Assembly: GCA_002791295.1 (NCBI GenBank)
Contig: PFWU01000049.1
Location: 231 to 45,349 of the forward strand
Direction of reading: 5' to 3'
Length of the DNA: 45,119 nt
Source of the DNA: Candidatus Uhrbacteria bacterium CG_4_9_14_3_um_filter_50_9
GTDB lineage: Bacteria; Patescibacteriota; Patescibacteriia; UBA9934; GWF2-40-263
Under the pieces are notes generated by a model. The model had not been told where the DNA came from, ran no database searches, and worked only from the letters and a program-made list of their open reading frames with translations. Position 1 is the stretch's first letter; every line of letters begins with the position of its first letter. Positions 1 through 42,258 of this stretch are shown piece by piece. Made by a program: the position numbers and the translations under genes.

Positions 1-1581
1 GAGGGAATAGCCGAAGTACCCATTTGACGCAGATCCGTAGATCCGTGTGGTGGCCGATCCGGCACTGCTTGAGCCACTCGTCATGGAGGTATCGATGTAG
101 ACCGCCCCTCCATCAGTGGTTTCTTCGTCGTTGCTCGAAGCCCCGAACACCACATCAGGGAAGCCGTCGTGGTCGAGGTCACAGTTGCCGAGAAGCTCGT
201 AGCCGGCGTAGTCACCGGTGGCTTCGCCAGTCCAGGTGCTGTCGGCGTCTGAGACACTGAGTGTTCCTGTGAATTCACAGCCCGTGGCCGTGCCGTCGCA
301 GTCGTTGTCCACGCCGTCTCGGCACACCTCGGTCTCGCCGGGGTTGACGTCAGCGTCACTGTCGTCGCAGTCGCCGTCGTCTTCGGCATGGCCAGACGGA
401 AGGATACAGTCCTCGGTTGTTCCCGAGCTGGAATCCCCATACCCGTCTCCGTCCGCGTCGACGTAGTAGGTTCTGGTCAGACCTTCGTTCACGTCGCCGT
501 CGCAGTTGTTGTCGATGTCGTCACAAACCTCGGTCTCGCCAGGGTTCGCCGCTGCTTCGGTGTCGTCGCAGTCGGTGTTGTCTGTGACGTAGTCACCGGG
601 GTTCTCGCAGTCCGAGGTCGCCGAGGCGTCTTCGTCGCCGTAGCCATCTCCGTCCACGTCTGGGTACCAGTCGTAGAAGGTGGTGTCGGTGTCGGTCTCG
701 TCGTCACAGTCGTCGTCGAGGTCGTTGTTGCAGATCTCCTCGGCGCCCGGGTTCACGGAGGGACGGGTGTCATCGCAGTCGTCGCCGTTTGCGACGTAGC
801 CTTCGACGTCATCCTGGCAGGTCGCCCAGATCGTGTCGGGGTCGCCGTAGCCGTCTTCGTCTGCATCCGTGTACCAGATGTAGGCGTCTTCGGCGTCATC
901 GGTGATGCCGTTGCAGTCCTCGTCCACGCCGTTGTCGCAGATCTCGGTTCCGTCCGGATTGACGGTGCTGTCCGAGTCGAGGCAGTCGCCATCGATTGCG
1001 ATGTAGCCACTCGGCTGCGTGCACTGTTCGAGGATGTCCTCGTCCGTGCCGTATCCGTCCTCGTCGAGGTCACGGTACCAGGTGGGTACCACGCCTTCGT
1101 CGATTCCGTCATCGCAGTCGTTGTCGATTTCGTCGCAGATCTCTTCGGCACCCGGGTGGATGTCACCCTTGGTGTCGTCGCAGTCGCCATTTTCGGCCAC
1201 ATAGCCGTCGGGCTGACCGCATGAGACAGTCGTCTGCGTACCACCAAAGCTGTCATCGTCCACGTCGATGTACCAGGTCGACTCCTCGACGAGCGAAGCG
1301 TCGTTGTCGTCGCAGTCGCCAGTCACAGCGACGTAGCCATCGGGCTGCGTGCAGGCGGTGGTGGTTTCATCACCACCCACACCGTCACGATCCGCATCCG
1401 CGTACCAGACACTCGCACCGCCGACGCTTCCGTCGCGATCGTTGCAGTCCTCGCCGTCGACGAAGGACAGTCCATCACCGTCCACATCGAGACGGTTCGC
1501 CAGGTCGTCCTCGCCGAGGAACGGCACACATCCGGTCAGAGACAGACACGCACAAAGCAGCATGTTCATCAGGTTCTTCAT
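1..1581 (-). CDS. Large lipoprotein with MopE-related Cys/Asp repeats followed by FG-GAP-like repeats (3'-truncated by window edge; missing from the ORF track)
   Basis: ATG at 1581 preceded by GAGGAGG. The translated start is MKNLMNMLLCACLSLTGC (lipobox LTGC), followed by many WYxDxDxDGYG / DCDD...PGAxEICD.xDNDCDG units, then CDLDHDGFPDVVFGA...GGAVY and GYFGYSL (FG-GAP-like) at the window edge in the same frame. GC-rich codon usage. Confidence 0.88.
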   Translation of the reverse strand, partial: MKNLMNMLLCACLSLTGCVPFLGEDDLANRLDVDGDGLSFVDGEDCNDRDGSVGGASVWYADADRDGVGGDETTTACTQPDGYVAVTGDCDDNDASLVEESTWYIDVDDDSFGGTQTTVSCGQPDGYVAENGDCDDTKGDIHPGAEEICDEIDNDCDDGIDEGVVPTWYRDLDEDGYGTDEDILEQCTQPSGYIAIDGDCLDSDSTVNPDGTEICDNGVDEDCNGITDDAEDAYIWYTDADEDGYGDPDTIWATCQDDVEGYVANGDDCDDTRPSVNPGAEEICNNDLDDDCDDETDTDTTFYDWYPDVDGDGYGDEDASATSDCENPGDYVTDNTDCDDTEAAANPGETEVCDDIDNNCDGDVNEGLTRTYYVDADGDGYGDSSSGTTEDCILPSGHAEDDGDCDDSDADVNPGETEVCRDGVDNDCDGTATGCEFTGTLSVSDADSTWTGEATGDYAGYELLGNCDLDHDGFPDVVFGASSNDEETTDGGAVYIDTSMTSGSSSAGSATTRIYGSASNGYFGYSL

Positions 1582-1697
1582 CTTTCCTCCTCAGATTCTG
1601 GTGAAGGGCCAGAACGCAATACCCAAACATTACTGTTTCGGTAAACCGGTCTGGCCCTGTGTTTGCAGGGAACGGTCCTTGTAAAGAACAACGGTGC

Positions 1698-1726
1698 AGA
1701 TTGGCTTAAAAAGGGTGTTTTGTCAA
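1698..1726 (-). promoter_or_regulatory. sigma70 promoter of the MopE-repeat lipoprotein gene
   Basis: Minus strand TTGACA-17 nt-CAATCT, followed 6 nt later by boxA-like TTGTTCTTTACAA (1679-1691). Confidence 0.7.
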
Positions 1727-1761
1727 CCCCACAGCCTCATCTTACCTTGCTGGCTTATGAG

Positions 1762-7417: not shown

Positions 7418-7476
7418 AAAAAAACGGATAGAAGTCCGTTTTTTGAATTGAAAAAGCACGCCGTTTACGTGCTTCA
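7418..7476. terminator. Tandem back-to-back terminators between convergent genes
   Basis: Hairpins AAAAAACGGA-tagaag-TCCGTTTTTT and AAGCACG-ccgttta-CGTGCTT separated by GAATTGAAAAA. Confidence 0.75.
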
Positions 7477-7866
7477 TGTGGTCAATATGTCGATCCAGAG
7501 GACGGCGACGAGTGCCAGTGTGGCACCGAGGATGGTTGTGACTGTGATGACGATGCCTGGAGTCTTGAGTCCAAACCATTTGAGAAGTCTGATCGTGAGA
7601 GGCTTGTAGAACCAGTTGTCGACAAGATCGGGGAACACCATGGCTCTTAGGTGGCCAGAGATGATCGTCAGTGGACAGCGGCAGCTAAGCAGGGCTTGCA
7701 CACCAACAATAGTGACGGCAAAGGCGGAATGCATGTGTCTTAAGGTCTTGAACTCTTCAAACGGGTAGAAGATGTATCCTCCTAACCAGAAGAGGATCAC
7801 GAGTACGTGTAGTGCATCCACAGCGAGCGCCAATCTCAAGTAGAAGCGTTTCCTCTTTTCTGTCAT
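7474..7866 (-). CDS. DUF2784-like membrane protein (130 aa)
   Basis: Start reassigned to ATG 7866 (MTEKRKRF; GGAG upstream) because the longer ORF-track version overlaps tRNA-Leu. It has hydrophobic helices with LHVLVI, a second His and a CRCPLT motif. Confidence 0.75.
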   Translation of the reverse strand: MTEKRKRFYLRLALAVDALHVLVILFWLGGYIFYPFEEFKTLRHMHSAFAVTIVGVQALLSCRCPLTIISGHLRAMVFPDLVDNWFYKPLTIRLLKWFGLKTPGIVITVTTILGATLALVAVLWIDILTT

Positions 7867-7902
7867 GAGGATTCTCCGGTTGGTGCGAGAGAAGGGTGGA
7901 TG

Positions 7903-7931
7903 ATCGTATAGCGTACAAGAGTCTCTGTCAA
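7903..7931 (-). promoter_or_regulatory. sigma70 promoter of the DUF2784-like gene
   Basis: Minus strand TTGACA-17 nt-TACGAT. Confidence 0.75.
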
Positions 7932-7937: not shown

Positions 7938-7970
7938 AGAAAAACCAGCAGAGAATCTGCTGGTTTTTCT
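7938..7970 (-). terminator. Terminator abutting the tRNA-Leu 3' end
   Basis: AGAAAAACCAGCAGA-gaa-TCTGCTGGTTTTTCT inverted repeat. Confidence 0.8.
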
Positions 7971-8056
7971 GGTGCGCAGAAGAGGACTCGAACCTCCAAG
8001 CCCCGAAGGGCACTAGCCCCTCAAGCTAGCGCGTATACCAATTCCGCCATCTGCGC
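7970..8056 (-). tRNA. tRNA-Leu(GAG)
   Basis: Reverse complement GCGCAGATGGCGGAATTGGTATACGCG-CTAGC TTGAGGG GCTAG-long variable arm-GGAGGTTCGAGTCCTCT-TCTGCGCACCA; encoded CCA. Confidence 0.97.
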
Positions 8057-8125
8057 ATCGGGACGCGGAGAAGCGTAACTGATTTGATCGAATGATGCAA
8101 GAGTGCTGGATGACTCCTACATTCT

Positions 8126-8169
8126 AAATGAAAAACGCGTGACCGGAGTCACACGTTTTTCATGGTGGG
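8126..8169. repeat. 44-bp direct repeat, copy 1 (last 7 nt of tRNA-Val plus its terminator)
   Basis: AAATGAAAAACGCGTGACCGGAGTCACACGTTTTTCATGGTGGG, identical to 9105-9148. Confidence 0.95.
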
Positions 8170-8368
8170 AAGCGTTCTGATACATGGAACTACTCGGGTG
8201 AGCAGACTCCGCTGGTCCTTATCTGTCTTGATTTAGATAAAAAGATTACAAGAATCGGATCTGCTTTAAAGAAATAGCGCACCCACGGTTAGCGGAGAGC
8301 CTCACGTAAGTGAGCTATCTCTTCGCTAGCGCGAGTGCGCGAGTTTGGTCGTTAGGACGTGGGAGGCT

Positions 8369-8590
8369 TTAGAAGGAGACCTCACCATCAACCGTAACGA
8401 ACTCGACCTCGACCTCAGGCGTGCCGTAGAAGCCATCGAACTGGTCCCGAGGGATGTCGTCCTCCTGTAGTTGGATGTTCTCGATGTCGATCTCCTCGCC
8501 GTACTTCACGACATCGAACCGCAGGTAGTATCCCGTCTGGTTCAGGCCCCGGACGAAGAGCTTCATCATGACCGCGTGCTTCTTGGACAT
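8369..8590 (-). CDS. Small acidic hypothetical protein (73 aa)
   Basis: Start placed at ATG 8590 (MSKKHAV) with GGAGG 4 nt upstream; GC-rich third positions; acidic C-terminal half. Confidence 0.7.
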   Translation of the reverse strand: MSKKHAVMMKLFVRGLNQTGYYLRFDVVKYGEEIDIENIQLQEDDIPRDQFDGFYGTPEVEVEFVTVDGEVSF

Positions 8591-8663
8591 CTGTCCTCCG
8601 TTGTTGGTTGTCTCAACCACTTACGGAGTTTGTCCGGTCGGAGAGGGCTCGCCGACCGCGGGG

Positions 8664-8915: not shown

Positions 8916-9021
8916 GCAGCCTCCTTGTTTCTCGTGTAGGTGGATCCAACACGGATCTTCATCGTTTTACATGGCAGCACGACAGAGATCTGGGTTGAAG
9001 TTAGCAAATCTCGAACGACAA

Positions 9022-9050
9022 AATATACGATAAATTGACGATTTTGTCAA
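9022..9050 (-). promoter_or_regulatory. sigma70 promoter of the two-gene insert
   Basis: Minus strand TTGACA-17 nt-TATATT. Confidence 0.75.
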
Positions 9051-9104
9051 TCTATAACGGGATTCAAACCCTCTTCCGTTTGAATCCCTCAGCCCCCACC
9101 ATAC

Positions 9105-15521: not shown

Positions 15522-15549
15522 CTATCCTCCAGGCTAGTGCAAGAGAAAG

Positions 15550-26136: not shown

Positions 26137-26140
26137 CCTT

Positions 26141-32100: not shown

Positions 32101-35100
32101 CGACTCCAACGAAATTCTAAAGGTTAACCGCGACCGCACCTGTGCCGCTTGGTTGGCTTGCGAGAGCTCAAAAACAAGCTGGAACGCACAGACAAATGCG
32201 TACGACACGATCTGTGATTCGATTGACCTGTGTGTTGAAGGACAGATTCGTGGAAGTAGTGTGCAGTGTACGAATTGGGAAACAGAAGACCCTGATATTT
32301 TGACGGTTTTTGACTACTCAGCACGTGACGTGAATTGGACCGGAATTGAGTATTCTGGATACTCGATTCCAAACCAGCTGCCTGTTGAGTATTACGATCA
32401 GTTTGATTTGAACCCAACAAAGGTCTGTGTGGATTCTGATGGTGATGCGTACACAAACGATGCCGGGTATGAATATGCCTGCAACGATGCTACCGATTGT
32501 CCAAATTCAACCACAACATGTACAAGTAATTCTACTTGTTCACTAAGTGGACTGTGTAATATTGATGCGGGTGTCTGTTATGAGACGTGTGCAGATGACT
32601 ATGGTTCAGATTATCGGTTGGTTTACAATGCGGGCCCATGTGATTCAGCAGAAGACGGTGGAGTGGGTCAAGGTGGTTCGTGTACGATTGGCTATTGTGC
32701 AAGCTCGCCCGCAGACGTGTGTTCTTCCAACAGTGATTGTGTCGATGAAGACTGCGTGATTGGTTACTGTCAAGCAGAGGGGGTAAGCGGCTATACAGAT
32801 GATAGTAATCCAAGTTGTTCGACAGATGATGATTGTAGTGGTGTCGTTGATTCAGATGGAGGAGCCACATCCGTTTGTGACCCCATTCAATCCATTTGTG
32901 TTGATGTACTCACGAGTGACGAAACAAACCGTGTAGGGTGTTCTGATTTAGATGACCCAACAGAGTGTTCTGGGGCACAGGAATGTATTACATCTGACAC
33001 CACAGCTGTTGGATCCTGTTTTAACAATCGCTGTCTCACAGACGTTGTTGATTCAGATGGAGATCATTTTGCAGATGCCATCGACAGAAGTCAGTTAGGC
33101 GTGGAAGAGTGCCGTGGATATCCAGAGACCGACTCCCCATTCCCTTACAAGGTTGTTGAACAGTGGAATAAAAAAACTGATTCAAATGACGATGGCATTC
33201 CAGATTCTTCCTCTATTACACTTGCCTCAAGTGAAGATGGGGTGGAGCCATGGTCCACTCCTTACAATTACGTTTCTGGTTATCAGGATGCGATCGTTTG
33301 TGCTCCAGATGAAGATGGGGTCGTGAATGATGATTGTTTGTGTAGTTACGATAAAGTTGAATACGGAGAAGGGACGAAACACCTTTATTACGAAGCCGGA
33401 ACGATTGCGAATGATCCAATTGTTGAAGGATTCTGTGCTTCCGGAGATAAAGCGGGTTGGCCTTGCTCAGAGGATAGTGATTGTGACGGATCTGGATCAG
33501 CATCCAGTACCTGTGAGAGTGCCACAAGTATTCAGACGCTTTACGGTTGGCAGGGATACTGTATTGAACGAGATACCTCGATTCAACTCAACGGAAGTTC
33601 CCAAGATCAGGATCAGGCCTGCCTCACATGGCTCCCGGTTGACCAGCTTTCTGGGGCCACAGACCTTTATGGAAAGTACACAGAAGCAGGTTACCCACTA
33701 CAAAATACCTACTTCTGTACGGAGGTCGCTCAGTACTTTGACCTGTATCCAACAGGAGCAAAGTTAGATAGTGATGGTGTGGTGGATGATATAGAGTGGG
33801 CCTGCGCAGATTCTGGGTTTGCTGGTGGGGCTTGTGATGGATGGGAAGAAGGTAAGGGAGATCCTTATGGAAAAGATGATATCTGTATTGATAATGCTCT
33901 GTGTCCTGATCAGTATTTTGCGATTCTTGGTCATTGCGACAACACCATCTCTGATGCGATCGGTGGAGAGGATAATTGGAAGGATGCAGATGGTGAAGAT
34001 CATGCAGATGCGTTGTGTCAGGATAATGTGATTGATGATTACTTAGCTGAACACGGAGCTTCGGACGACTGTCCTTACATGTGCATCCATCGAGACAGTG
34101 TTCATCTCCAAGGTCCTGATGCTGGGGAATCGTGTTTGGATTCAATTAAAGATAATTCAGGTGATTACACATATCGAGGGGAGAACACACTTGGACAGTC
34201 CGTCTACTCCGCTGGTTGGCTTAACTATGGTCCAGATGATTATGAGAGTGATGAGAGTTTTTTAAGAGACTGTGTCACCCGTGGAGTGAGTGAGTGGTAT
34301 GACGGGACATGGCCGATTGGGAGTTCGGATAAGTATATTGCGAGTGATGGACTAGTTGCTGATTTGGCACAGTTTTCTCACATGGCGTGGGGCCCAATGG
34401 ATAATTTCGGATTTGGAAAGTGCAGTTCATCATCAAAACTCTGCACGTCCGATGATGACTGTACTTATTCATCATTTTATGGGAATTACTGTGCTGATTT
34501 TGATATCGATAGTGATCATGATGGTATTGTTGATATTCCAGCTCTTACTTGTATGAATGATCCATCGGTCAGCTGTACGGCGGCTACAGAGACTATTGAC
34601 TGTTCCGGTACAACATACACAGGCACCTGTGTGGAAACAACCATGTACGCTCAAGCAGAGAGCTTTGAGGGGTATGGAAGCATGATGCCGTACTTGGCTT
34701 GTGCTCAGATTGTGCAAGCTTCATCAGCAGACCCGGATGATTCAAACAAGGCTTGGACCAATCGTTTGTGGGAAAGTTACTCAGATCTCTACACAGGCGG
34801 AAACAGAAGTGATTTCGCAGACGGTTCAGGGGATATTTATCCATTTGATTATGCGGTGACAGACTCACCATTAGAACTCGGTCGTGCGTTGTTTGAGGAG
34901 GTGTATGAAGAGTCTGGGGAGGGGTACATGATTATGTCAGAGCTTTCAAATGATAGCTTCCCACTCCCAACACGTTCATGTAATACCTCCAACAATGCCG
35001 CCTTTGATGATAGTGGTGATGTGGCTTGGTCTGTTGGAATCGCGACAACTCCAGACGATTATTGTGATGCCTCGTACTCGTGGTGGGAGTATCCGATGAT

Positions 35101-36295
35101 GAAGCAATGGCAATGGCTTCCTCCAAGTTCAGATTATGATGCTGACGGACCGGAGAGTTTTCTTCCAGTGGAGGCGAATGGTGACTACGCCGTTCTCTCA
35201 CTGCCGTTTGAGGATCTTGATTCAGAAGATGTTTTTGCCAGCGATCAAGTAGAAGATCCGATTGATGGTTTTGGTAACAGCACTTCATTGGATTACAAGA
35301 GTATTTCAGAATTCTTGAGTCAGTACTTTGCAGAGATCTTTGCTGTTTGGGAGTACGATGATGATAATACAGCGTATGATGACTGGGATTCTGCTGAATC
35401 AGGGGATCAAGGGGGTGCGTATGTGCTTGTTAATTCAGACCATGCATTTGACATCAGCTCTGGTGAGGATTCAGGAAGCTTAAAAGAAATTGATAACTTT
35501 GGGTCTGGAGCAAACAAATTCCCTAATGATGATGAACGAGCACCGGTGATTATCTCTGTGGGGGAGTGTGTTGGTACGCAATGTTATGAAGATGAAGAAG
35601 GGGCGTTCAGTGTGGGTGAAGTAGATAGTGGAACGCTTGTTGGTGAAGGAGAAAAGCGTGTGGACGTGAGCTTCTTTGTCAAAGGCGCTCCAAACCAATT
35701 GCCATTGAAGAAAATCATTGTTGATTGGGGTGATGCGTATACCTACACAAACAGTGGTCCAGATTGGCCAACAGATTCTCAAAGTGGTTCAACCGCCTCA
35801 AATAACTTCTATAAGAATCACCGTGGATTGGATGCGGGTGGAACAGAAAATTGTACAAAATCTGAAAAGTGGGGTGAGACGTCTGACTCATGTAGCTCAA
35901 GCTATGTGCTCTTCACTCACAATTACGTTTGTACAGCTGCCTATGTGAACTCACTCGTAGACAAGGGACGGGAGTGTGACGTAGGTGAGGATGGAAATCT
36001 CCTTATCTCGCCATGTACAGGAAACGCATCAGGTACCAGCGATAACATTTCCGGCGCTGACGGAGCCTGCGTCTACCAACCAAGAGTCCACGCAGTAGAC
36101 AACTGGGGGTGGTGTACGGGAACATGCAATTCGAATTCAGAGGATGATTCGGATGCGTGTTATGGAAGTGAGTGTAACGTAGATGCATGCCCAAGCGGGG
36201 GGTATGCAGGGTATGCGTGTATTGAACAGAATTTTACAGGAACAACAAGTGATCCTTGGGTGTACTTTGACGGATATATCGTCGTGAGTCCGTAA
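26141..36295 (+). CDS. Giant (~3384 aa) secreted Cys/Asp-rich surface protein with carbohydrate-binding-module-like domains
   Basis: Signal peptide (FVVTLFLLVFCLSLG...AQA); helical N-region; repeated C-x5-GC units; two CBM-like beta-sandwiches (NPSFED...PDNW...FDAVQLE; ENFEGG...FIDNITF); DxDxDG loops; C-x2-(D/N)-x-DC repeats; PKD-like IIVDWGD C-terminus. Start moved to ATG 26141. Confidence 0.9.
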   Translation: MQVTPKTKRFVVTLFLLVFCLSLGSVFLSDVPQAQAAFASPGQFGSTMDYATARQEVSAGAAEGACPTGGPITTTCPATGLRLVLHTIGEKIISPQFRLVLLQALLNVSQFVLDRLAYEAAVSIASGGPGETSLFYDKSPAEAFGQLGLDVAGETLGQLNDITNGYLGIGFNLCAPSPLINWAVSIGIKQRYQPDKPSCDILEVGKNWNNYISNTYQTISDPDTRNTAIKKKFAESLAPGANELSASLRLNVAVDQQIHEKKMTNFFERTEKEYLDVINFITGNVETPSETLQAEFTKTTLDADGKATRDANLQAAIQNADLLGGLAVSTASTFVNTLLSTLLNRIYTGLFAIDTPDIDLNDYEGSSGGDRGAAEDRFASLLTSSPIATGSIDLLSNFVVCTAGGGNNRGLNNCVMDSNFLAAVSRGNSGAPLTVQEAINEGLLNGDWPLISPEDRSSNQDAFCYTYGYCYGNIVKLRKARVLPIGWELAALRNDPSNPDSLQEIIDGFDDCTDLGTVGSASSDNDDNRWCHLIDPNWVLKYPETQCRATVNAEIRVSSLVNGRLGECVDAPSCIGEDNDGNCTDGYGYCVQERNVWRFRGEECPEQYTTCLALENTTTGDSDGYLVSTVDYSVCDGDNAGCLWYRTNKYYSDGGTEDDESDDTYEWLPDGVDYMTAERDSVNRYQNSAGDTSSRASFGEYASKDDVDDATAAEVYSYEDRLYVTHAVSECDSSDAGCTQLYEIDEDTILNVVKNPSFEDDDDGDAVPDNWQIVSGSTYDYDTSGDAYYGDAALEVDGTWFGQYVGLAPSNFYTLSAYVRADDASESSGNISIFLYDEDGDPVNLSGTSVGGDCDGTFSSTGSYIVTLDPADTSTLPTGEWTRVECTFTTNTEVTQGLVNVTSGGVLRFDAVQLEVGENTNAFTTGYLTVPTAAYYKIAPDYLGCTGASTDPDACDSYSQMCSAQNVGCSLYTPEDGDPSVPAIISELDECPSECVGYTTYKQEATSYDDEEFPLYFIADQAAGCSEQYVGCDAFTNLGLVTEGGESVEYYTELRACLTEDMADDSDSAKTPAVFYTWEGSDNAGYQLQTWYLLESNLSSSSTITYTQDEDGDGTLDVDPDTSADVAPCVEWQVSSEDTVVCADDSATVSTLEADDDCNEHDDIFNNPDCREFFDGEGTVHYRLYSETISVDDACTAYRKDESSEDDCDASGGYWTAQGFCRYYSLPSLATECPEEQAGCRLYTGGTGRNATTLLSENFEGGTYGDFESLTVSATPGLSISNESVATEGHSLRITSSAGYGGFATLHEYLNGSDNTDAFDADNAAATCTSYSARYLSDSDGACLVDLDGDLEGDAACTIEDGEWSCGTVVDTLTAGKTFVVEFWAKGSADMLVALVEDGGTSAVYHDFVDPDNTSTSYTDLEPIELTGSWEVYSVGPLDTSALTDVDQDAVLTFLLDGATSGGDEEMFIDNITFKQVEENIAIIKDSWVVPSTCDTSPAGVESNQYYLGCEAYEDQKGNDVDLYQFSSLCEEEVVGCEAFYNTYNSDSEYQEVSNARCVYDTDGDLSDGETIPSNRTCEVDGVEYCTITSGRSYCTFDAEMTFEDPLPIDSSTGFGIVYGPETVIVQGDQPVYIVADDAYACSSSVMGCEEVGVPTFNQDQSEVESFESTYLINLPSDYENILCSNEELFCEEWSSSDGSNWYFKDPYDKTCEYKTSVTIDSQTYYGWFRTDTSEPCYFDDTDDDEEWDSGSENAYLISGEELGIWNNGDDDYEAWIATCPTQYDFCTEFIDVVDTGGGLNEDGQSYYVTNDELLDEETLTDTQRCNGLVSQKFGCALLNNTTDSDLNYNASASYVTSTHADVFYNQDPNDLVDPIDCNLDEGGVFEISASDASDAGIAANADGNYEVNLCARRCSYTLDSTDDSLTTDLSDRSGSLRWLERSCLVDSDCPDLTTALGEDEKGTCRNVDDLIYALSYGDAEDYYLGNDSNEILKVNRDRTCAAWLACESSKTSWNAQTNAYDTICDSIDLCVEGQIRGSSVQCTNWETEDPDILTVFDYSARDVNWTGIEYSGYSIPNQLPVEYYDQFDLNPTKVCVDSDGDAYTNDAGYEYACNDATDCPNSTTTCTSNSTCSLSGLCNIDAGVCYETCADDYGSDYRLVYNAGPCDSAEDGGVGQGGSCTIGYCASSPADVCSSNSDCVDEDCVIGYCQAEGVSGYTDDSNPSCSTDDDCSGVVDSDGGATSVCDPIQSICVDVLTSDETNRVGCSDLDDPTECSGAQECITSDTTAVGSCFNNRCLTDVVDSDGDHFADAIDRSQLGVEECRGYPETDSPFPYKVVEQWNKKTDSNDDGIPDSSSITLASSEDGVEPWSTPYNYVSGYQDAIVCAPDEDGVVNDDCLCSYDKVEYGEGTKHLYYEAGTIANDPIVEGFCASGDKAGWPCSEDSDCDGSGSASSTCESATSIQTLYGWQGYCIERDTSIQLNGSSQDQDQACLTWLPVDQLSGATDLYGKYTEAGYPLQNTYFCTEVAQYFDLYPTGAKLDSDGVVDDIEWACADSGFAGGACDGWEEGKGDPYGKDDICIDNALCPDQYFAILGHCDNTISDAIGGEDNWKDADGEDHADALCQDNVIDDYLAEHGASDDCPYMCIHRDSVHLQGPDAGESCLDSIKDNSGDYTYRGENTLGQSVYSAGWLNYGPDDYESDESFLRDCVTRGVSEWYDGTWPIGSSDKYIASDGLVADLAQFSHMAWGPMDNFGFGKCSSSSKLCTSDDDCTYSSFYGNYCADFDIDSDHDGIVDIPALTCMNDPSVSCTAATETIDCSGTTYTGTCVETTMYAQAESFEGYGSMMPYLACAQIVQASSADPDDSNKAWTNRLWESYSDLYTGGNRSDFADGSGDIYPFDYAVTDSPLELGRALFEEVYEESGEGYMIMSELSNDSFPLPTRSCNTSNNAAFDDSGDVAWSVGIATTPDDYCDASYSWWEYPMMKQWQWLPPSSDYDADGPESFLPVEANGDYAVLSLPFEDLDSEDVFASDQVEDPIDGFGNSTSLDYKSISEFLSQYFAEIFAVWEYDDDNTAYDDWDSAESGDQGGAYVLVNSDHAFDISSGEDSGSLKEIDNFGSGANKFPNDDERAPVIISVGECVGTQCYEDEEGAFSVGEVDSGTLVGEGEKRVDVSFFVKGAPNQLPLKKIIVDWGDAYTYTNSGPDWPTDSQSGSTASNNFYKNHRGLDAGGTENCTKSEKWGETSDSCSSSYVLFTHNYVCTAAYVNSLVDKGRECDVGEDGNLLISPCTGNASGTSDNISGADGACVYQPRVHAVDNWGWCTGTCNSNSEDDSDACYGSECNVDACPSGGYAGYACIEQNFTGTTSDPWVYFDGYIVVSP

Positions 36296-36333
36296 CAACA
36301 AAACGAGGCCAAGTGGCCTCGTTTTGTTGTTAC
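36292..36333 (+). terminator. Terminator of the giant-protein operon
   Basis: Perfect 19-bp arms GTAACAACAAAACGAGGCC-aagt-GGCCTCGTTTTGTTGTTAC overlapping the stop codon. Confidence 0.85.
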
Positions 36334-36387
36334 AAGTACTTTCTTCTTGAGATGCATGCCACGGATCAAACATAAATCTTGTGTAAC

Positions 36388-36429
36388 AATTGAAAAACCG
36401 GCAGAGGATTCCGAGGAATCATGCCGGTC
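36388..36429 (-). terminator. Terminator of the 222-aa lipoprotein gene
   Basis: Minus strand ACCGGCA-tGATTCC-tc-GGAATC-ctc-TGCCGGT-TTTTCAATT. Confidence 0.7.
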
Positions 36430-36449
36430 GTTGCGACTGTACTGGTGCA

Positions 36450-37118
36450 TCAGTCGCGGTGGAAAAGGAACTCGTCGACTTCGCCACTGGTGGCATTGAG
36501 CTTGGTCATCGAGAAGGTTTCTTCATCGATGATCGTACCGCTCCACCAACTACCAGAGTCAGTCGAGCCGTAGAAGTCGTAGTCACTCATCGTGGCGTCC
36601 GAGCCACCCGCGACGTTCTCGATCGTGATCGTGTCACCGATCGTGATCGTGATCTCCGCTTCACGACCCCAGATCTCGTCCGTGTACGAGCCCTCAAGCG
36701 GAGGGAAGCCGTACTCGCCGGGCACCCACTCGTCGCAGGGACCAGTGGCGTCCCAGTCGGGGTCGCTGGCGCAGCCGCCTTCGGCCCACTCGACGGAGAA
36801 CTCGCCGGTGGTCTGGACTTCGACAGTCTTGGGCACGAAGGTGTACGTGTCCCAGGCCTCGACATCGTACGTGCCGGCTTCGTCCACCAGGTAGGTGCAC
36901 GAGGTGCCGGCGCAGGTGGCGTCGATTCCGTCGACGGTCACTTCCACCCCTTCGAAGGGGGTGGTGGCCACGATGGTGGCTTCGAAGTCGTTGACTCCGG
37001 TGTCGTCGCCGGTGTCCACCGTTTCGTTCCCGTTGTTGTCGTTCGGATCGCCGCACCCCACCGCGAAGGCGAGGGGCAGCGCGATCAGGGCCAGGAGGCC
37101 GTAGTTGGTCGCGTTCAT
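36450..37118 (-). CDS. Acidic lipoprotein, hypothetical (222 aa)
   Basis: Signal with lipobox AVGC; PEGA-like GVEVTVDG...GTYDVEA segment; very GC-rich codons; AGGGG SD. Confidence 0.85.
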   Translation of the reverse strand: MNATNYGLLALIALPLAFAVGCGDPNDNNGNETVDTGDDTGVNDFEATIVATTPFEGVEVTVDGIDATCAGTSCTYLVDEAGTYDVEAWDTYTFVPKTVEVQTTGEFSVEWAEGGCASDPDWDATGPCDEWVPGEYGFPPLEGSYTDEIWGREAEITITIGDTITIENVAGGSDATMSDYDFYGSTDSGSWWSGTIIDEETFSMTKLNATSGEVDEFLFHRD

Positions 37119-37293
37119 GGGTTTCCCCTTTCTGCCCCGCGGGGGTGCGTGACCCAGACAATTCTAGGACAACGACCTTTTGCGGGATTGTTGAAGGATC
37201 CCGCTAGATGCGGGAGGGCGGTGATTAGCCGCAGCCATTGGTGGGGGACACGTGTCACCTATCAGTGGCTACGACTAAGACGCTCAAAAACCC

Positions 37294-37349
37294 TTACTAA
37301 AGAACAGTGTATCTAAATACAGTAGGCCATATTTAAGGGGTTTTGTCAA
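37294..37349 (-). promoter_or_regulatory. Promoter and boxA-like motif for the 222-aa lipoprotein
   Basis: Minus strand TTGACA (37344-37349), a weak or long-spaced -10 (TACTGT at 19 nt), then CTGTTCTTTAGTAA (37294-37307) and a ~180-nt hairpin-rich leader. Confidence 0.5.
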
Positions 37350-37549
37350 TAGGCAAAGGGTTCAAAGAGGTTATATTGTAGGAAAAAGTGTGTGGATTGT
37401 GGATAACACACCCATGAATCACGCAATGTTTATCGCTCATGTCATCAACATACAGAAATAATGCTAAGCCATCACGATAAGTAAAGTTCCATATATAAAA
37501 GCTTCTTAACCAGACAAAACAACACTCCTTCAAATAAAACTCCTCTAAA

Positions 37550-37577
37550 CAAACTTGTAGCGATCGCTACAAGTTTG
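37550..37577. repeat. 28-bp perfect palindrome, copy 1 (just past the stop of the PaaX/Cas2-like gene)
   Basis: CAAACTTGTAGCGA|TCGCTACAAGTTTG. Confidence 0.95.
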
Positions 37578-37578
37578 A

Positions 37579-38103
37579 TTAACAAATGGTTTGAGCTAGC
37601 AATACTGACGCCCACTTCTCGATACCTAATAGTTTGATGAGTTGGTGGATTTCTGACGTGACGTTACTCTTTGTCGTCCATACACTCAGCTGTTTTTGTT
37701 CAAATCCCGAAGATTTCAAAAAGCGCCTAAAGGTTGTTCTGGCTGACTTTGCCGCCTCTGGAAAGTCAAAAATTATGACCGTTTCATAACCACCAGGCAG
37801 TTGTTGTGTGTTGGTTCTGACTTTGTGCTTCACCCCTTCAATAATTGCGTCTTTGCTTAGCAGATAAATGACTTGCTCACCCTCTTGATGATTTTGCACC
37901 CACCCTTTATGTTGCATCTGTTTTAACGCTCGAGCCTCCTTGTTTTTTCTAAAAATTGCATCCCATTCCTCTGAGCTCATACCTCCTCTCATCTCTCGTC
38001 TGAATGCATAAGGATTACTCGCCCAATCAAAAAGCATTCCACCACCATCAAGCAATGATCCCATCACCTCTCCAACAATTGATTTTTTCTTTTTATCTGG
38101 CAT
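37579..38103 (-). CDS. PaaX-like protein (winged-helix wing plus Cas2-like ferredoxin-fold domain)
   Basis: ARALKQMQHKGWV......VIYLLS, followed by VIIFDFPE..KSAR..FRRFLKSSGFEQKQLSVW. Confidence 0.82.
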   Translation of the reverse strand: MPDKKKKSIVGEVMGSLLDGGGMLFDWASNPYAFRREMRGGMSSEEWDAIFRKNKEARALKQMQHKGWVQNHQEGEQVIYLLSKDAIIEGVKHKVRTNTQQLPGGYETVIIFDFPEAAKSARTTFRRFLKSSGFEQKQLSVWTTKSNVTSEIHQLIKLLGIEKWASVLLAQTIC

Positions 38104-38107
38104 AGGA

Positions 38108-38130
38108 CAAACATGTAGCGATCACTACAA
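38108..38130. repeat. Palindrome copy 2 (4 nt upstream of the ATG of the PaaX/Cas2-like gene)
   Basis: CAAACATGTAGCGATCACTACAA, 21/23 identical to copy 1. Confidence 0.9.
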
Positions 38131-38202
38131 ATAGTGGCTGAGTAATGTTCACTCCCAGCAAAAGAAAAGCCCTCCAGCAAGGAATGTGGAGGGTATAATT
38201 AA

Positions 38203-38230
38203 AAGATACAGACGCAACAGAGATTGTCAA
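38203..38230 (-). promoter_or_regulatory. Promoter of the PaaX/Cas2-like gene
   Basis: Minus strand TTGACA-16 nt-TATCTT, followed by a terminator-like hairpin (38159-38193). Confidence 0.55.
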
Positions 38231-38253
38231 TACTTGTCGCGATCGACAAGTAT
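38230..38253. repeat. Palindrome copy 3 (abutting the -35 box)
   Basis: ATACTTGTCG-cgat-CGACAAGTAT; shares ACTTGT.GCGATCG and ACAAGT with copy 1. Confidence 0.75.
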
Positions 38254-38994: not shown

Positions 38995-39001
38995 GGTTTA
39001 C

Positions 39002-39130
39002 GGGACTGTTCCCCAATGCGATGAGATTGGCTTGAACGGGCTGTCGATCGCTGAAAACGTCCTCAAACGGACGTTGAAGCGATGACTGGGTGCCTGTGAA
39101 AGCCAAGATCGCGCATTCGGGAATAGTTCC
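39002..39130 (+). repeat. Rod-shaped palindromic element, copy B (REP/MITE-like or structured RNA)
   Basis: Nested stems GGGACTGTTCCC/GGGAATAGTTCC, AATGCG/CGCATT, TTGGCTT/AAGCCAA, ATCGCT/AGCGAT, AACGTCC/GGACGTT; homologous to the minus strand of 9219-9345. Confidence 0.8.
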
Positions 39131-39157: not shown

Positions 39158-39206
39158 TTGACTTGAGCACGTAAAAATGCTAAAAAAGTGCGTCGTTCTT
39201 TGGCAA
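39158..39206 (+). promoter_or_regulatory. Promoter and boxA-like motif for the GC-rich kinase unit
   Basis: TTGACT-17-TAAAAA with TG extension, then CGTTCTTTGGCAA (39194-39206) and a long hairpin (TGTGGAGTC...GACTCCACA). Confidence 0.65.
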
Positions 39207-39291
39207 TATGTGTGTGGAGTCCAATGGGCTCCTTGTGTTTTCAAGGGGGTCTTTTTGACTCCACAACAACACTTCTAGAGAGAGGGATGAC

Positions 39292-40272
39292 ATGAAGCAT
39301 ACCACCACCGTCGTCTGTGCCCTGGTGCTCTTCGGAGCCGAGGCAAAGGCCAAGGGGCCGGTCGCTGTCGAACAGCCTCCGGCATGCGAACAGGCCACCA
39401 CGGTTTCTGTGTTGGCCAGACTGTCGATGGCGGGGGATTCCGCCTTCGCCTCCTTCGACACCGAGATGCTGAAGCAGACCGCACGCGATGCCGAAGCGGC
39501 TCTCGTGTGTCTGAACGAGCCGGTGACGCAGCCCGTTGCCGCATCCTACCACCGACTCATGGCACTTGCGGCCTTCGTGAACGGCGAGGATGATCTGTCT
39601 CGGCGTGAGCTGCACGCCAGCTACCGCTTGGAAGATACCTATGTCTTCCCGACGCAGATCGCACCTGAAGGTCACCCCCTCCTCGTCTTCTACGAGGAGG
39701 CCAAGCTGCTTCAGGGTGGGAGTCCCGAGGATCTCTATCCGCCCATCGGTGGGTACGTGACCATCGACGGCGAGAAGATGGACATGCGTCCGAGCGAGAC
39801 GCCGGTCATTGTGCAGGCGTTCTCATCCACGGACGAGCTTCTCGAGACGCACTACGTCCTCGCAGGGCAGAGCGTGCCTCGCTGGGGTGAGCTGACTGCT
39901 CGCCTCAAGGTTGAGGACCTCTCCGCGCTGCCCAGCACCACTGTGCAGCGCAAGAAGAAGCCCGCCATGCCCTGGCTTGTCGCCGGAGGTGCAGCGCTGG
40001 CACTCGGTGGTGTTTCCTACGGAATCGCCATGGATCAGCACAGTCGCTTCTTGGACACGTCGAGTCCCGACGGAGATGGAAGCGAGGATACCCTGAACGG
40101 CTACATGAACCGTGCCAACACCTTCGGGGCGTCGGCGATCGGTCTTGGTGTCGTGGGGGTGGGCCTCATGGGCACCGGCGTGGTACTCCAAGTTCGCTTC
40201 GGAGGTCCGCGCGGAAACCCTGATCTCACCGTGGGCCCCGAGGTCTCGGAAGGAGGTGCGGATGGGCCGTGA
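39292..40272 (+). CDS. Exported hypothetical protein with C-terminal hydrophobic helices (myxobacterial-type architecture)
   Basis: Signal peptide, helical domain, short GGYVTIDG beta segment, PWLVAGGAALALGGVSYGIA and a second Gly-rich hydrophobic helix; GC-rich; GAGGG SD. Confidence 0.85.
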   Translation: MKHTTTVVCALVLFGAEAKAKGPVAVEQPPACEQATTVSVLARLSMAGDSAFASFDTEMLKQTARDAEAALVCLNEPVTQPVAASYHRLMALAAFVNGEDDLSRRELHASYRLEDTYVFPTQIAPEGHPLLVFYEEAKLLQGGSPEDLYPPIGGYVTIDGEKMDMRPSETPVIVQAFSSTDELLETHYVLAGQSVPRWGELTARLKVEDLSALPSTTVQRKKKPAMPWLVAGGAALALGGVSYGIAMDQHSRFLDTSSPDGDGSEDTLNGYMNRANTFGASAIGLGVVGVGLMGTGVVLQVRFGGPRGNPDLTVGPEVSEGGADGP

Positions 40273-42187
40273 CATCTTTCAGGAGCGGATCCTCGCCCTG
40301 CTTGCGCAGCATGATGGAGGCCGCTTCCAGGCCAAGACCATCCTTGGTCACGGAGGAAGCGCGCGCGTGGTCCTTGTCGAGGACATGAAGCTCGGGGTCG
40401 AGAGGGCTATCAAGGTCTTCGATCCCCAGCTGATCACCCGCTCACGGATCGCACGCGAGCGATTCGGGGGTGAGGCGAGGATCATGGCCCAGCTCGAGCG
40501 TCGCAACATCGTTCGCGTCTACGACGTGGTCGACTGTGAGTTCGACGGCGACCAGTGGAAGTTCCTCATCATGGAGCTGCTCACCGGAGGTACGGCTCGG
40601 GACCATGTCACTCAGTTCGGGCCGATGGATCCACGCCAAGCGGTTGAGGTGGTGCTCGAAGTGCTCGATGCCCTCCGTGCTGTTCATAGCAAGAAGGTCA
40701 TCCACCGCGATATCAAGCCCGAGAACATCCTGCTCTCGGGCGAGGGTGTGGTGAAGCTGGCAGACTTCGGGATTGCCTTTGCTCCGCGTGATCGGACCAG
40801 GCTGACCGTGCAGGGCTCCACCATGGGCACGGAAGTCTACATGGCTCCGGAGCAGCGTGAGGATGCTTCGAGCGCAACCACGCGTTCGGACATCTACTCA
40901 GTGGGCGTCGTCCTCTGGGTGCTCCTCATCGGAAGGGAGCCCTACGCTCCTCCGGGCTACAACAACTTCTTCCAGAACGTCGAGCGCAACCCTCTGTGGT
41001 TCGACGGCATTCCGGATGAGCTCAAGCAGATCATCATGATCGCGACGAGTGAGGATCCTCAGTTCCGGTTTGACTCCGCACAGGCAATGGAAGACGAGCT
41101 TCGCGCAGTTCTTCCCTTGCTCGCCTCGACACCCTCACAGGCTCCCAAGCTTGGGAGTGCACCTGAGGCCAAGCGTGCGAAGGAAGCTCGTGAACAGATG
41201 ACCGCCAGGAACCTGGCGGATCTGGCCGACGACGGGGACGACTCCGAGATCGGAAACAGCGAGCTCGGAGTCGTCGAGTACGTGAGGCATTCGCCAGTGG
41301 CTGTCTCCGTCTCCGGTGGTCTGGAGGTCTCTTCCTCAAGTCCGGGGTCAACCAAGGTGCCGCTCAGCACCGGCGGGAGACTCGTCTCCGAGGAAGTTGA
41401 CGATGGTTTCGAAGAACCACCCCTCCTGAACGCTCTCCCATCAGGCACCCTCTCGGATGCCCGTCCGCTCAGCGAAACCCGCATGGGCAAGATGATGGAC
41501 GCCGAGCAGAGGACGTCGAAGCGCAACTTCGCCATCCTCGTCGGGGTCGTCGGGATTCTCGCCGTCGGATTGGTCAGCCTCCTCATCGTCGGTAAGACCT
41601 ACTTGTTCGATGGTGAGTCCGGTCAGGTCGAGGAGCCTGTACAGATCGTTTCCACGGTCGAGGTGGAGCCTGTGAAGGAGCCGGCAAAGGAGGATCTGAC
41701 CACGCCGGAACTTCCTGTGTTGGATCCGCCCGAGGAAGTCCAAGAGGCCGAGCCGGCGCAGAAGGAGTCCAAGACTCCGGTGGTCGCACAAGTGAAGGTG
41801 GAACCCAAGCAGACCGAACCGACGCCTCCTCGTGAAGTGAAGGTGAATACGGATTCTGCGAAGGAGACTCCACCCCCCGAGACCACACCGGTCCAAAAGG
41901 GGATGGTGCGCCTGGTGCCAAAGCAGGTGATGGAGGTCGACGATCCGGAGGCTCCCGAAGGGAAGCGGAGCGGTGTGGTCACCTACGTCCTCAGTGGCAC
42001 CAAGGGAGAGGGGACGTTCACTCTGTCCTCGACACGCTCCATGGCCCAGGTGCCCCACGGTACCTACCAGGCCACCGTCTCGTTCGAGGGCCGGAGCCAG
42101 AACCAGACCGCCCCCACCATCAAGGTCGACGGGGCACTCACAACGGTTGAGTGCTTCTGGACCATGGCAAACTGCCGTGTCCAGTAA
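40262..42187 (+). CDS. Membrane-anchored Hanks-type Ser/Thr protein kinase
   Basis: LGHGGSARV, RAIK, HRDIKPEN, KLADFG, GTEVYMAPEQ, SDIYSVG; TM helix, Pro/Glu linker, small C-terminal beta domain. Start moved to ATG 40262 (GGAGGT SD; overlaps the upstream stop). Confidence 0.95.
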   Translation: MGRDIFQERILALLAQHDGGRFQAKTILGHGGSARVVLVEDMKLGVERAIKVFDPQLITRSRIARERFGGEARIMAQLERRNIVRVYDVVDCEFDGDQWKFLIMELLTGGTARDHVTQFGPMDPRQAVEVVLEVLDALRAVHSKKVIHRDIKPENILLSGEGVVKLADFGIAFAPRDRTRLTVQGSTMGTEVYMAPEQREDASSATTRSDIYSVGVVLWVLLIGREPYAPPGYNNFFQNVERNPLWFDGIPDELKQIIMIATSEDPQFRFDSAQAMEDELRAVLPLLASTPSQAPKLGSAPEAKRAKEAREQMTARNLADLADDGDDSEIGNSELGVVEYVRHSPVAVSVSGGLEVSSSSPGSTKVPLSTGGRLVSEEVDDGFEEPPLLNALPSGTLSDARPLSETRMGKMMDAEQRTSKRNFAILVGVVGILAVGLVSLLIVGKTYLFDGESGQVEEPVQIVSTVEVEPVKEPAKEDLTTPELPVLDPPEEVQEAEPAQKESKTPVVAQVKVEPKQTEPTPPREVKVNTDSAKETPPPETTPVQKGMVRLVPKQVMEVDDPEAPEGKRSGVVTYVLSGTKGEGTFTLSSTRSMAQVPHGTYQATVSFEGRSQNQTAPTIKVDGALTTVECFWTMANCRVQ

Positions 42188-42194
42188 CGAACGC

Positions 42195-42258
42195 AAGAGA
42201 TGAGCACCGCCTCATCTCTTTTCAATTACAAAACCCCCGCAGCGAGCGGGGGTTTTTT
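42195..42258. terminator. Tandem back-to-back terminators between convergent genes
   Basis: AAGAGATGAG-caccgc-CTCATCTCTT-TTCAATTAC-AAAACCCCCGC-agcga-GCGGGGGTTTTTT. Confidence 0.85.

Follow-up and report, generated by a model that had tools for sequence, protein, structure and literature searches.

Six stand-alone transcription units of a Candidatus Uhrbacteria contig as probable members of a native, Shine-Dalgarno-led gene class

Introduction

In Bacteroidia, with Flavobacterium johnsoniae as the example, the accessible parts of the literature describe translation initiation that is independent of the Shine-Dalgarno (SD) sequence, an anti-SD that is nevertheless retained, an SD-led rpsU gene and a sequestration of the anti-SD by the ribosomal proteins bS21, bS18 and bS6 (PMC7797042, PMC9976891, PMC13000453). 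For Parcubacteria, the available text of Tsurumaki et al. (2022; PMC9297842) reports that an anti-SD motif was detected in only 48% of the genomes, and in E. coli the initiator tRNA has been described to form a quadruplet pairing with U(-1)AUG (PMC10018350). Here we analyse a stretch of 45,119 nucleotides, called the window in the following, from Candidatus Uhrbacteria bacterium CG_4_9_14_3_um_filter_50_9 (contig C12 of genome G000 in our sample, a genome of 1.07 Mb in 55 contigs; other G numbers denote its relatives), in which six units, U1 to U6, are scattered between housekeeping genes. An earlier interpretation made from the letters of the window alone, the sequence-only reading, had proposed that unrelated foreign open reading frames (ORFs) had been fitted into a common expression chassis, either by a dedicated gene-capture route or as a regulon translated differently from core genes. 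The comparisons reported here argue instead for a native, accessory, SD-led gene class to which the units belong as autonomous transcription units; in this reading, the six are ordinary local members of the lineage-wide class and not the cargo of a capture system. We give this reading a probability of roughly 0.7.

Compared with Bacteroidia, the genome is similar in the SD-less majority of its genes despite a CCUCC in the 16S rRNA, in A-rich regions upstream of the starts and possibly in an SD on rpsU. It is different in that about one sixth of its genes are SD-led and have their own codon style, promoters and terminators, and in that the signal of the remaining genes, here called the backbone, is a U at position -1 in 79% of the ATG starts. 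With SD-poor Parcubacteria it shares the phylum and the weak reliance on SD pairing; however, the accessible text on that group (PMC9297842) deals with loss of the rRNA motif and describes no two-class genomes, whereas the anti-SD is kept here. Quadruplet pairing represents a possible mechanism for the U before the AUG of the backbone genes. Its effect in E. coli is said to be a modest, modulating one, whereas the U at -1 is the dominant start-site signal here.

Phage morons are autonomous promoter-gene-terminator units between conserved genes. The units resemble them as single genes with their own promoter and terminator, a deviant composition and either orientation between conserved genes; however, they do not lie in a prophage, inheritance across the family or order applies to many of them, and about 12% of a cellular genome belongs to the class. 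The genes next to the units are cellular ones (valS, argS, nusA, yidC, groES/EL, a release factor gene, ksgA and serS) and not phage genes. Integron cassettes are comparable with regard to unrelated single ORFs that carry a recurring non-coding end motif. Unlike them, the units have no IntI, attI or attC, possess their own promoters and are scattered in random orientation (34 of 68 antisense) instead of being arrayed, and they end in predicted intrinsic terminators with a short tail motif, not in attC.

Two gene classes in one genome

Class B refers to the high-GC3 genes (GC content at third codon positions) as assigned by a two-model codon gene caller that was trained on the same data, and class A to the backbone; within the window, the unit genes were placed by this caller together with direct reading of the sequence. 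The distribution of gene GC3 has two modes, separated by a trough near 0.62. Class B comprises 154 of the 918 called genes and 132 kb, i.e. about 12% of the genome and about 17% of the genes, approximately one in six, with a mean GC3 of 0.77 compared to 0.48 in class A. The GC content of 400-nt windows across the genome peaks mainly at 0.46-0.50, with a second shoulder at 0.58-0.62.

The two classes also differ in their start sites. An SD was found at the early start of 69% of 145 class-B genes (interior null 11%) but of only 11% of 731 backbone genes (null 16%), whereas a T at -1 of ATG occurs in 7% of 84 class-B and 79% of 545 backbone starts. The T at -1 of the backbone is present regardless of the intergenic gap (76-83%), and the starts carrying it have no SD and are mildly A-rich at -14 to -4. 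When genes were called by length only, i.e. model-free, the SD frequency increased with rising GC3 from 8% to 59-66%, and T-ATG decreased from 81-83% to 5-10%. GC3 and SD usage are bimodal genome-wide, as the sequence-only reading had anticipated. The second of its two options, a gene set that is translated differently from the core genes, is supported at the level of sequence signals by the frequencies of SD (69% vs 11%) and T-ATG (7% vs 79%) and by the occurrence of the same split across the order.

The flanking signals show the same partition, and the expectation that flank motifs are commoner at the units and their class than at backbone genes was borne out. A strict promoter (TTGACA-N16-18-TAnnnT) precedes 25 of 121 class-B genes, 34 of 364 backbone genes and 2% of shuffled sequences, and CGTY follows the -10 of such promoters in 32% of 25 class-B cases compared to 3% of 34 backbone cases. 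The predicted hairpin terminators of class B end in the tail pattern TTTTC(A/T)(A/G)ATT; the form TTTTCAA(A)T was found at 14% of 125 class-B and 1% of 376 backbone genes, and GGTTTTC or TTTTCTGATT at 16-19% and 1-3%, respectively. The 16S rRNA 3' end of the genome reads GGATCACCTCCTTT with an intact anti-SD CCUCC, so that the SD-poor backbone, with fewer SDs than its interior null, exists alongside a kept anti-SD (16S 3' end CACCTCCTTT).

With regard to function, class B is mixed. Among 146 proteins we found 56 Pfam families, including MopE/FG-GAP, purA, NUDIX, PanD, CoaBC-type, RNA ligase, CheR, radical SAM and TonB-dependent receptor families. A crude hydropathy screen gave no enrichment of membrane or secreted proteins in class B (28% of 145 vs 39% of 732 in the backbone). 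The genes groEL, groES, valS and nusA use backbone codons, hence class B is not the usual set of highly expressed genes. As a separate observation, the TonB-dependent receptor gene, coding for plug and barrel, runs off the end of contig C10 (44219-45523); an outer-membrane receptor is unexpected in this lineage and could be a recent import or a mis-join.

These start-site data raise the question whether class B is a translationally gated regulon. In this extension of the native-class reading, ribosomes would be SD-blind by default, and the approximately 17% of SD-led genes would be translated mainly when the anti-SD is free and would thus form a condition-dependent set. This extension would agree with the SD-poor backbone despite the intact anti-SD, with the SD of U6a (see below), which is kept in 20 of 20 orthologues regardless of their GC3, with the precedent in the accessible Bacteroidia literature (PMC7797042, PMC9976891, PMC13000453), and with the start of rpsU, which encodes bS21. 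The rpsU gene of the genome (contig C37, about 9521-9763) has the arrangement AAGGAG-N9-GTG with T at -1. In relatives, an SD-like element, AAGGAGG or GAAGGTGA, stands before the gene in 6 of 24 genomes under a strict pattern and in about 14 of 24 as judged by eye. However, the sequestration of the anti-SD is transferred to this organism by analogy, the bS21 match lies under the Pfam cut-off (23.4 vs 27 bits), and the heterogeneity of class B, which also contains the only strong purA, is unlike a single regulon. Moreover, the accessible text on F. johnsoniae reports a strong SD on one gene, rpsU, and not on a sixth of the genome (PMC13000453). We regard this extension as possible, if on balance unlikely. 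By the same analogy one might go as far as to propose two initiation grammars in one tiny Patescibacteria genome, i.e. a default SD-blind U-AUG mode and a separately gated SD-led mode for about one sixth of the genes, which would reside in an insulated promoter-SD-terminator chassis, use C-ending codons and be exchangeable as cargo at fixed intergenic sites, with anti-SD availability (e.g. bS21 occupancy) as a global switch for an accessory, host-interaction proteome. Such a scenario appears unlikely to us.

The six units of the window

The backbone of the window is a plus-strand run of housekeeping genes with a GC content of about 47%. It includes valS (start at 1801), argS (4519), genes for a bactofilin and a DAGK-type kinase, DUF4153 (9436), genes for a methyltransferase and UPF0102, nusA, yidC, a Wzy-like gene, groES, groEL, a release factor gene, an epimerase gene, a Sua5-family gene (PF01300), a ksgA-type gene for an rRNA adenine dimethylase (PF00398), the gene of a 3401-aa protein and serS. 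The six units were found between these genes at the places where the sequence-only reading had seen them, each as a separate predicted transcription unit (Table 1). Its description as a whole held in part: placement, GC3, SDs, unrelated ORFs and shared motifs stood, the number of promoters with 17-nt spacing did not.

Table 1. Units and neighbouring non-coding features of the window (positions in the 45,119-nt stretch; promoters, SDs and terminators are predicted).
Feature	Position	Strand	Description
U1 gene	1-1581	-	Five MopE-type Cys-rich repeats (PF11617, E=4e-43) and an FG-GAP repeat (PF01839); lipoprotein-type N-terminus; GC3 0.77; 3' end of gene cut by window edge
U1 head	1582-1726	-	TTGACAAAA at 1721-1726; GTTCTTT at 1683-1689; SD GAGGAGGAAAG directly before ATG at 1581
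U2	7441-7931	-	TTGACA-N17-TACGAT (7903-7931); SD GGAG; ORF 7474-7866 (130 aa, multi-pass membrane protein, weak DUF2784 match, GC3 0.65); hairpin terminator about 7441-7473, tail TTTTTCAATTC
tRNA-Leu(GAG)	7970-8056	-	U2 lies directly downstream of its terminator
44-nt direct repeat, copy 1	8126-8169		7 nt of tRNA 3' end plus terminator hairpin; distal boundary of the U3 islet
U3	8369-9050	-	TTGACA-N17-TATATT (9022-9050); two small SD-led ORFs: 8664-8915 (83 aa, membrane protein, GC3 0.82) and 8369-8590 (73 aa, acidic, GC3 0.85)
Diverged inverted copy of tRNA-Val 3' end	9079-9101	+	T-arm, acceptor stem and CCA, opposite the shared terminator; read from the sequence
44-nt direct repeat, copy 2	9105-9148		Overlaps last 7 nt of tRNA-Val; 100% identity to copy 1, spacing 979
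tRNA-Val(TAC)	9142-9218	-	
U4	15180-15578	-	TTGACAAAA-N-TATTGT (15550-15578); SD GGAGGA; ORF 15213-15521 (102 aa, two transmembrane segments, GC3 0.80), antisense between yidC and the next backbone gene; hairpin terminator, tail TTTTTCAAATTC
U5	36388-37349	-	TTGACAAAA at 37344-37349; GTTCTTT at 37299-37305; leader about 190 nt; SD AAAGGGGAAA; gene 36450-37118 (222 aa, lipoprotein-like, GC3 0.85)
U5 terminator	ends 36388	-	Hairpin, tail TTTTTCAATT
Multi-copy segment, probable hairpin repeat	39002-39127		Just upstream of the U6 promoter; outside the cassette design
U6 operon	39158-42233	+	TTGACT-N17-TAAAAA (39158-39186); GTTCTTT at 39195-39201; SD; hairpin terminator, tail TTTTCAATTAC
U6a	39292-40272	+	326 aa, signal peptide and C-terminal transmembrane segment, GC3 0.75
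U6b	40262-42187	+	Hanks-type Ser/Thr kinase, overlaps U6a, GC3 0.76

Five of the six units are antisense to the backbone, with U1 to U5 on the minus and U6 on the plus strand. Over the whole genome, 34 of the 68 class-B genes that lie between co-oriented backbone flanks are antisense to them, compared to 48 of 468 backbone genes, i.e. the orientation of class-B genes is random; hence, five antisense units in the window are within chance (P=0.11). As proposed before, the units are GC-richer than their surroundings: GC3 amounts to 0.65-0.85 compared to 0.41-0.53 in the backbone, U2 being the weakest of the six (GC 0.51, GC3 0.65), whereas GC1 and GC2 differ little, and the contrast is therefore one of codon choice and not of amino-acid content. 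The non-coding heads of the units are AT-rich as judged by eye, and mutational equilibrium was for this reason set aside as the cause of the high GC3.

All eight unit ORFs are preceded by a purine-rich SD, and they are mutually unrelated, the lowest E-value in an all-against-all BLASTP being 0.10. Seven of the eight proteins appear from their sequences to be membrane-bound or secreted. Pfam assigned U1 to the MopE/FG-GAP families, U6b to the kinases and U2, weakly, to DUF2784; the remainder is without a family, including both U3 ORFs, in which consequently no integrase or excisionase family was seen. None of the scanned ORFs of the window matched a Pfam integrase or transposase, and the window contains no attC-like site. 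The recombinase census found a single tyrosine recombinase (PF00589) in the whole genome, on contig C36. For U5, a plus-strand ORF at 36390-37316 was considered as the gene and rejected as the antisense shadow of the minus-strand gene (GC1 0.75 exceeding GC3 0.55).

The non-coding ends indeed share motifs, namely TTGACA heads, terminator tails and TTGACAAAA. Exact TTGACA heads, all on the minus strand, start U1 to U5 (1721-1726, 7926-7931, 9045-9050, 15573-15578 and 37344-37349), and U6 begins with TTGACT. The hexamer is depleted in the window (17 copies vs 37.3±6.4 expected); five of the 17 copies are the heads of U1 to U5 and more than half lie upstream of genes, and the depletion suggests selection against stray -35 elements. 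The longer form TTGACAAAA is present in U1, U3, U4 and U5. Regarding the five promoters said to have a 17-nt spacing to a -10, four could be recovered (U2, U3 and U4 by scan criteria, U6 by eye), while for U1 and U5 no acceptable -10 was found at 16-18 nt from TTGACA. U2, U4, U5 and U6 close with a GC-rich hairpin that is followed by a short run of T and the tail CAA(A)TT (TTTTCAA(A)TT), and GTTCTTT stands about 31-38 nt past the -35 in U1, U5 and U6, which accounts for three of its five copies in the window. Nevertheless, the backbone genes groES (19479) and a PaaX-like gene (38230) have equally good TTGACA promoters, hence this promoter type is not private to the units. With loose criteria, promoter and terminator counts in the window were no higher than in shuffled sequences (17 vs 17.9 and 12 vs 20.7, respectively); only the near-perfect sites stand out.

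A GC contrast along one contig could also result from an assembly or binning artefact, in which GC-rich fragments of a different organism had been joined into it. The metagenomic origin of the assembly, its 55 contigs with runs of N and the class-B TonB receptor gene running off a contig end would be compatible with such an event. However, independently assembled relatives hold the same genes at the same sites, and Logan contigs of four other groundwater/aquifer runs cover both classes with similar depth. One stretch spanned by these contigs leads from U5 to the PaaX-like gene (36647-37882; 37098-38237), another from the end of the kinase gene to the following gene (41849-42511; 42172-42743). 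An odd joint between 27270 and 37074 in runs X4 and X5 was left out of account. Several of the junctions for which the sequence-only reading had envisaged missing read support are thereby bridged independently. Furthermore, GC-rich DNA is not enriched at contig ends (15 of 110 ends vs 11.4% of windows, P=0.45). An artefact as the source of the units is hardly credible.

Conservation of the split and history of the units

The class split is not restricted to one genome. It was seen in two relatives of the same family (G006, G005) and in weaker form in a third (G004), in members of three other families of the order (G024, G030, G022) and in a genome of another order of the class (G179). Within the order, none of the six relatives with sufficient numbers of sampled genes lacked it. 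In these relatives, T at -1 occurs in 62-86% of the backbone ATG starts, depending on genome or GC3 bin, and backbone SD frequencies are mostly low (5-19%), with the exception of 32% in one bin of G005. The high-GC3 minority has an SD in 40-88% of the cases in six of the seven genomes, whereas this SD contrast was not seen in G004. Three genomes from other classes of the phylum had no GC3 heterogeneity (standard deviation of GC3 0.04-0.05), and the backbone T at -1 was not seen in two of them and raised in the third (29/48). The sample of G019 gave eight genes only and was counted neither for nor against the split.

Two units could be traced back within the family. A homologue of U1 lies divergently beside valS in seven of nine relatives (G001, G004, G005, G006, G008, G011, G016); G017 has none there, and in G029 the contig ends too near to judge. 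These homologues have 33-45% identity, compared to 61-78% for valS. They exceed the GC content of their own backbone in G005, G006, G001 and G016, by a small margin in G008 and only just in G004. Of the 72 family genomes, 39 have U6a, each as a single copy; all 20 loci examined have the kinase gene adjacent and an SD. In the trees of U6a and the kinase, all genera represented at least twice form monophyletic groups, with g1 in the kinase tree as the one exception. The GC3 of the gene pair amounts to 0.43-0.62 in the g31/g8/g33/g4 clade and to 0.48-0.91 in the g37/g6/g17/g1/g5 clade, with U6a alone at 0.54-0.91 in the latter. Trees following genera, constant adjacency and a constant SD argue for an inherited operon, in which the SD is a stable trait and GC3 depends on the lineage. 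The U6a proteins of G000 and the same-genus G001 share 43% identity.

The proposal of foreign ORFs fitted into a chassis by a dedicated capture route is not supported for the two largest units, considering U1 at valS in seven of nine relatives, the adjacency in all 20 U6 loci and the lack of a recombinase in the window. Fixed synteny across the clade had been named as a finding that would speak against the proposal; U1 and U6 are fixed in this sense, U2 and U4 count as orphans, and the distribution of U5 is patchy. U2 was found in none of the 72 family genomes and retrieved only itself in a search of 5.8 billion proteins, U4 was found in none of the 72 genomes, and U5 has seven related clusters among the 5.8 billion proteins and weak matches in nine of the 72 genomes. 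For class B as a whole, a tblastn search in 257 kb of G006 matched 13 of 154 genes with a median identity of 35%, compared to 189 of 764 backbone genes with 55%. Among five assessable class-B sites in G006, one was conserved, one empty and three had unrelated content, and 14 of 87 conserved backbone adjacencies carry more than 400 nt extra in that genome. Class B probably represents the flexible, fast-evolving genome fraction at intergenic hot spots.

Patchy units with a deviant composition might alternatively be recent horizontal imports from GC-rich, SD-using bacteria, e.g. a host, that have kept donor codon usage and signals. Composition and signals do resemble those of typical GC-rich bacteria, and MopE/FG-GAP proteins, a Ser/Thr kinase and a TonB-dependent receptor are encoded in the class; moreover, U2, U4 and U5 occur in few relatives or in none, and most look-alikes of U6a are from Myxococcota (see below). 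However, U1, U6 and purA are common to the family and GC-rich, with the U6 trees following genera, and no donor was found. The case of purA is instructive, as the only strong match of the genome is an SD-led class-B gene (contig C10, 2466-3719). Homologues of it were found at 51-58% identity in five of 18 same-family relatives and at 45% in one genome of another family of the order (six of 30 overall), and GC3 is raised in five of the six relatives that bear it. Outside, a search with one genome per species gave nothing above 47% identity, the best matches of 41-47% being spread over many phyla. In addition, U5 with its seven clusters and U2 with only itself offer no donor among 5.8 billion proteins, and the signal motifs are common to unrelated genes, which is not expected from diverse donors. 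A viral origin was also considered; a scan of viral contigs with U3b, U4 and U5 gave no relatives, and it was rejected for these units. Recent import as the explanation of the whole class is very improbable, though individual orphans among U2 to U5 could be acquisitions.

A further alternative, cassette exchange, regards the promoter-leader and terminator-tail motifs as a fixed chassis in which ORFs are swapped by site-specific or microhomology recombination. The U4 site would be an example. Five relatives (G006, G004, G017, G045 and G040) have an empty site here. The same-genus G001 carries an antisense cassette at this place; it shares homology with window 15545-15605 in the -35, the -10 and the start of the leader, and continues with an SD, a 130-aa ORF with a GC3 of 0.53 and the tail ATTTTCAAT. 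This ORF gave no BLASTP alignment with U4 at E<=100, i.e. an unrelated ORF stands behind a homologous promoter. However, the conserved block at this site also holds the divergent promoter of the neighbouring backbone gene, and the two ORFs, both small and of membrane type, may be orthologous but too divergent to be recognized, considering the 43% identity of U6a between the same two genomes. The class-B sites of G006 with unrelated or no content would likewise agree with an exchange.

At U5, two 2-kb metagenome contigs, the sole U5 matches in a metagenome scan, correspond to window 37882-36388 at 99.9% and 98.5% identity and diverge directly after the U5 tail TTTTTCAATT into a GIY-YIG-like gene, so assigned by reading of its translation, that is absent from G000; run X3 leaves the window at 36310 into the opposite end of this segment. 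Such partings at a unit tail would be expected from cassette exchange, but the junction can be explained as an indel of a GIY-YIG-type gene between two terminators: window 36311-36387 is the site of a strain-level indel, with a segment of at least 532 nt between the terminators of the giant gene and of U5 in other populations.

U3 is bracketed by a perfect 44-nt direct repeat with 935 bp between the copies, a duplication that could also be taken as a trace of exchange. It reminds of tRNA-adjacent islets, as U3 abuts tRNA-Val, the repeat includes the tRNA 3' end and an inverted tRNA fragment lies beside it. Furthermore, tRNA orientations vary among relatives: in G000, G017, G001, G004, G005 and G006 the orientations of tRNA-Leu and tRNA-Val relative to their neighbours differ (for tRNA-Leu relative to the DAGK gene). 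Unlike such islets, the 935 bp between the repeats contain no integrase, U3 is the sole case among 67 blocks, and only seven nucleotides of the repeat are inside the tRNA, the rest being its terminator. The region 7970-9218 looks like a local rearrangement hot spot.

Several general findings weigh against cassette exchange. The window has no recombinase and the genome a single tyrosine recombinase; flanking direct repeats of at least 14 nt were found at one of 67 internal class-B blocks (U3) compared to two of 543 backbone controls; the shared motifs, of at most 10 nt, are accounted for by promoter and terminator function; and U1 and U6 are vertically inherited. Cassette exchange as a general mechanism appears distinctly unlikely.

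Proposed organization and its weak points

Taken as members of a native class, the units would be expressed as follows. A near-consensus sigma-70-type promoter (TTGACA, often TTGACAAAA, with a 17-nt spacer and a T-rich -10) would drive a mono- or bicistronic mRNA, whose leader often begins with a (C)GTTCTTT-like sequence. Translation would start by SD pairing with the intact CCUCC tail of the 16S rRNA, and the transcript would end at a GC-rich hairpin that is followed by a short run of T and the tail C(A/T)(A/G)ATT. Housekeeping genes would use the same kind of promoter more sparsely, together with SD-free starts, nearly always U-AUG, and unbiased third codon positions. Class B would represent the accessory, fast-evolving fraction, in which U1 and U6 are presumably old and vertical, U2 to U5 were probably gained, lost or replaced at intergenic hot spots, and U3 may have arisen by an event that duplicated 44 nt at the tRNA-Val 3' end. 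The common design would then reflect the needs of a stand-alone gene in this lineage and not a capture machine.

Concerning the age of the two hallmarks, SD-led status is probably older and more stable than the codon style, as all 20 U6a orthologues have it whatever their GC3. The style of G/C-ending codons has a phylogenetic structure, with differences between subclades even where the inherited genes are the same. Candidate drivers are selection on class-B mRNAs and biased gene conversion in often-recombining accessory genes. Class-B codons have C3 0.465 and G3 0.307, and TTC, ATC, TAC and AAG reach about 0.9 each.

A number of points count against a native class. The two-model codon caller sharpens the bimodality of class B, to which the raw GC windows and the model-free caller are a partial answer, and the relatives were sampled as partial genomes of 70-257 kb each with 4-23 high-GC3 genes each. 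U2 to U5, with few or no homologues, may be acquisitions and not residents. The mix of metabolic and envelope functions in class B is equally expected from horizontal gain. Among the Atlas look-alikes of U6a, which are hypothetical proteins, those from Myxococcota predominate (score 0.96, TM 0.50-0.58); this is a lead for an ancient import and not a test of one. Moreover, the codon style poses an evolutionary puzzle, namely what holds GC3 at 0.8-0.9 in vertically inherited genes while other genes sit at 0.48. Simple matching to tRNAs was rejected as the cause of the C-ending codons for Ala and Pro, where GCC and CCC are preferred in class B and the sole tRNAs found among 38 are UGC and UGG, i.e. 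UNN tRNAs only; and the strong excess of C3 over G3 is unlike the prediction of plain, symmetric biased gene conversion. As an observation in its own right, some of the clusters of U6a look-alikes carry PEGA or TPR domains.

If the native-class reading is correct, a split between SD-less U-AUG housekeeping genes and an SD-led accessory sixth with its own signals and codons has lasted through the divergence of a class. In searches of the main texts of the literature on SD usage in Patescibacteria/Candidate Phyla Radiation and on horizontal gene transfer and GC content in Uhrbacteria, no description of it was found. In these organisms, native genes would be mistaken for foreign DNA or contamination when judged by composition, and gene finders with a single start model would misplace the starts in one of the two classes. 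Furthermore, the split offers a testable handle on how the ribosomes of reduced episymbionts choose start sites, and it bears on the question whether SD pairing can be a regulatory channel.

Further features of the window

Rfam at gathering thresholds returned two tRNAs only in the window, and lower-scoring matches were due to chance; the pairing of the tRNA fragment at 9079-9101 is visible in one spurious alignment of this kind. The probable hairpin repeat upstream of U6 is multi-copy in four metagenome runs; in run X2 its depth is 28.9 compared to about 5, with loose contig ends at 38999-39004 and at 39096/39127. The giant backbone gene (26090-36295), with a product of 3401 aa, has a weak CBM_4_9 match and shares 54% identity over 2553 residues with its counterpart in G006. 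Finally, a second kinase-like gene of the window, at 17809-19461, belongs to the backbone class with ordinary codon usage and encodes a partial protein-kinase domain (Pkinase E=3e-14, residues 289-379).

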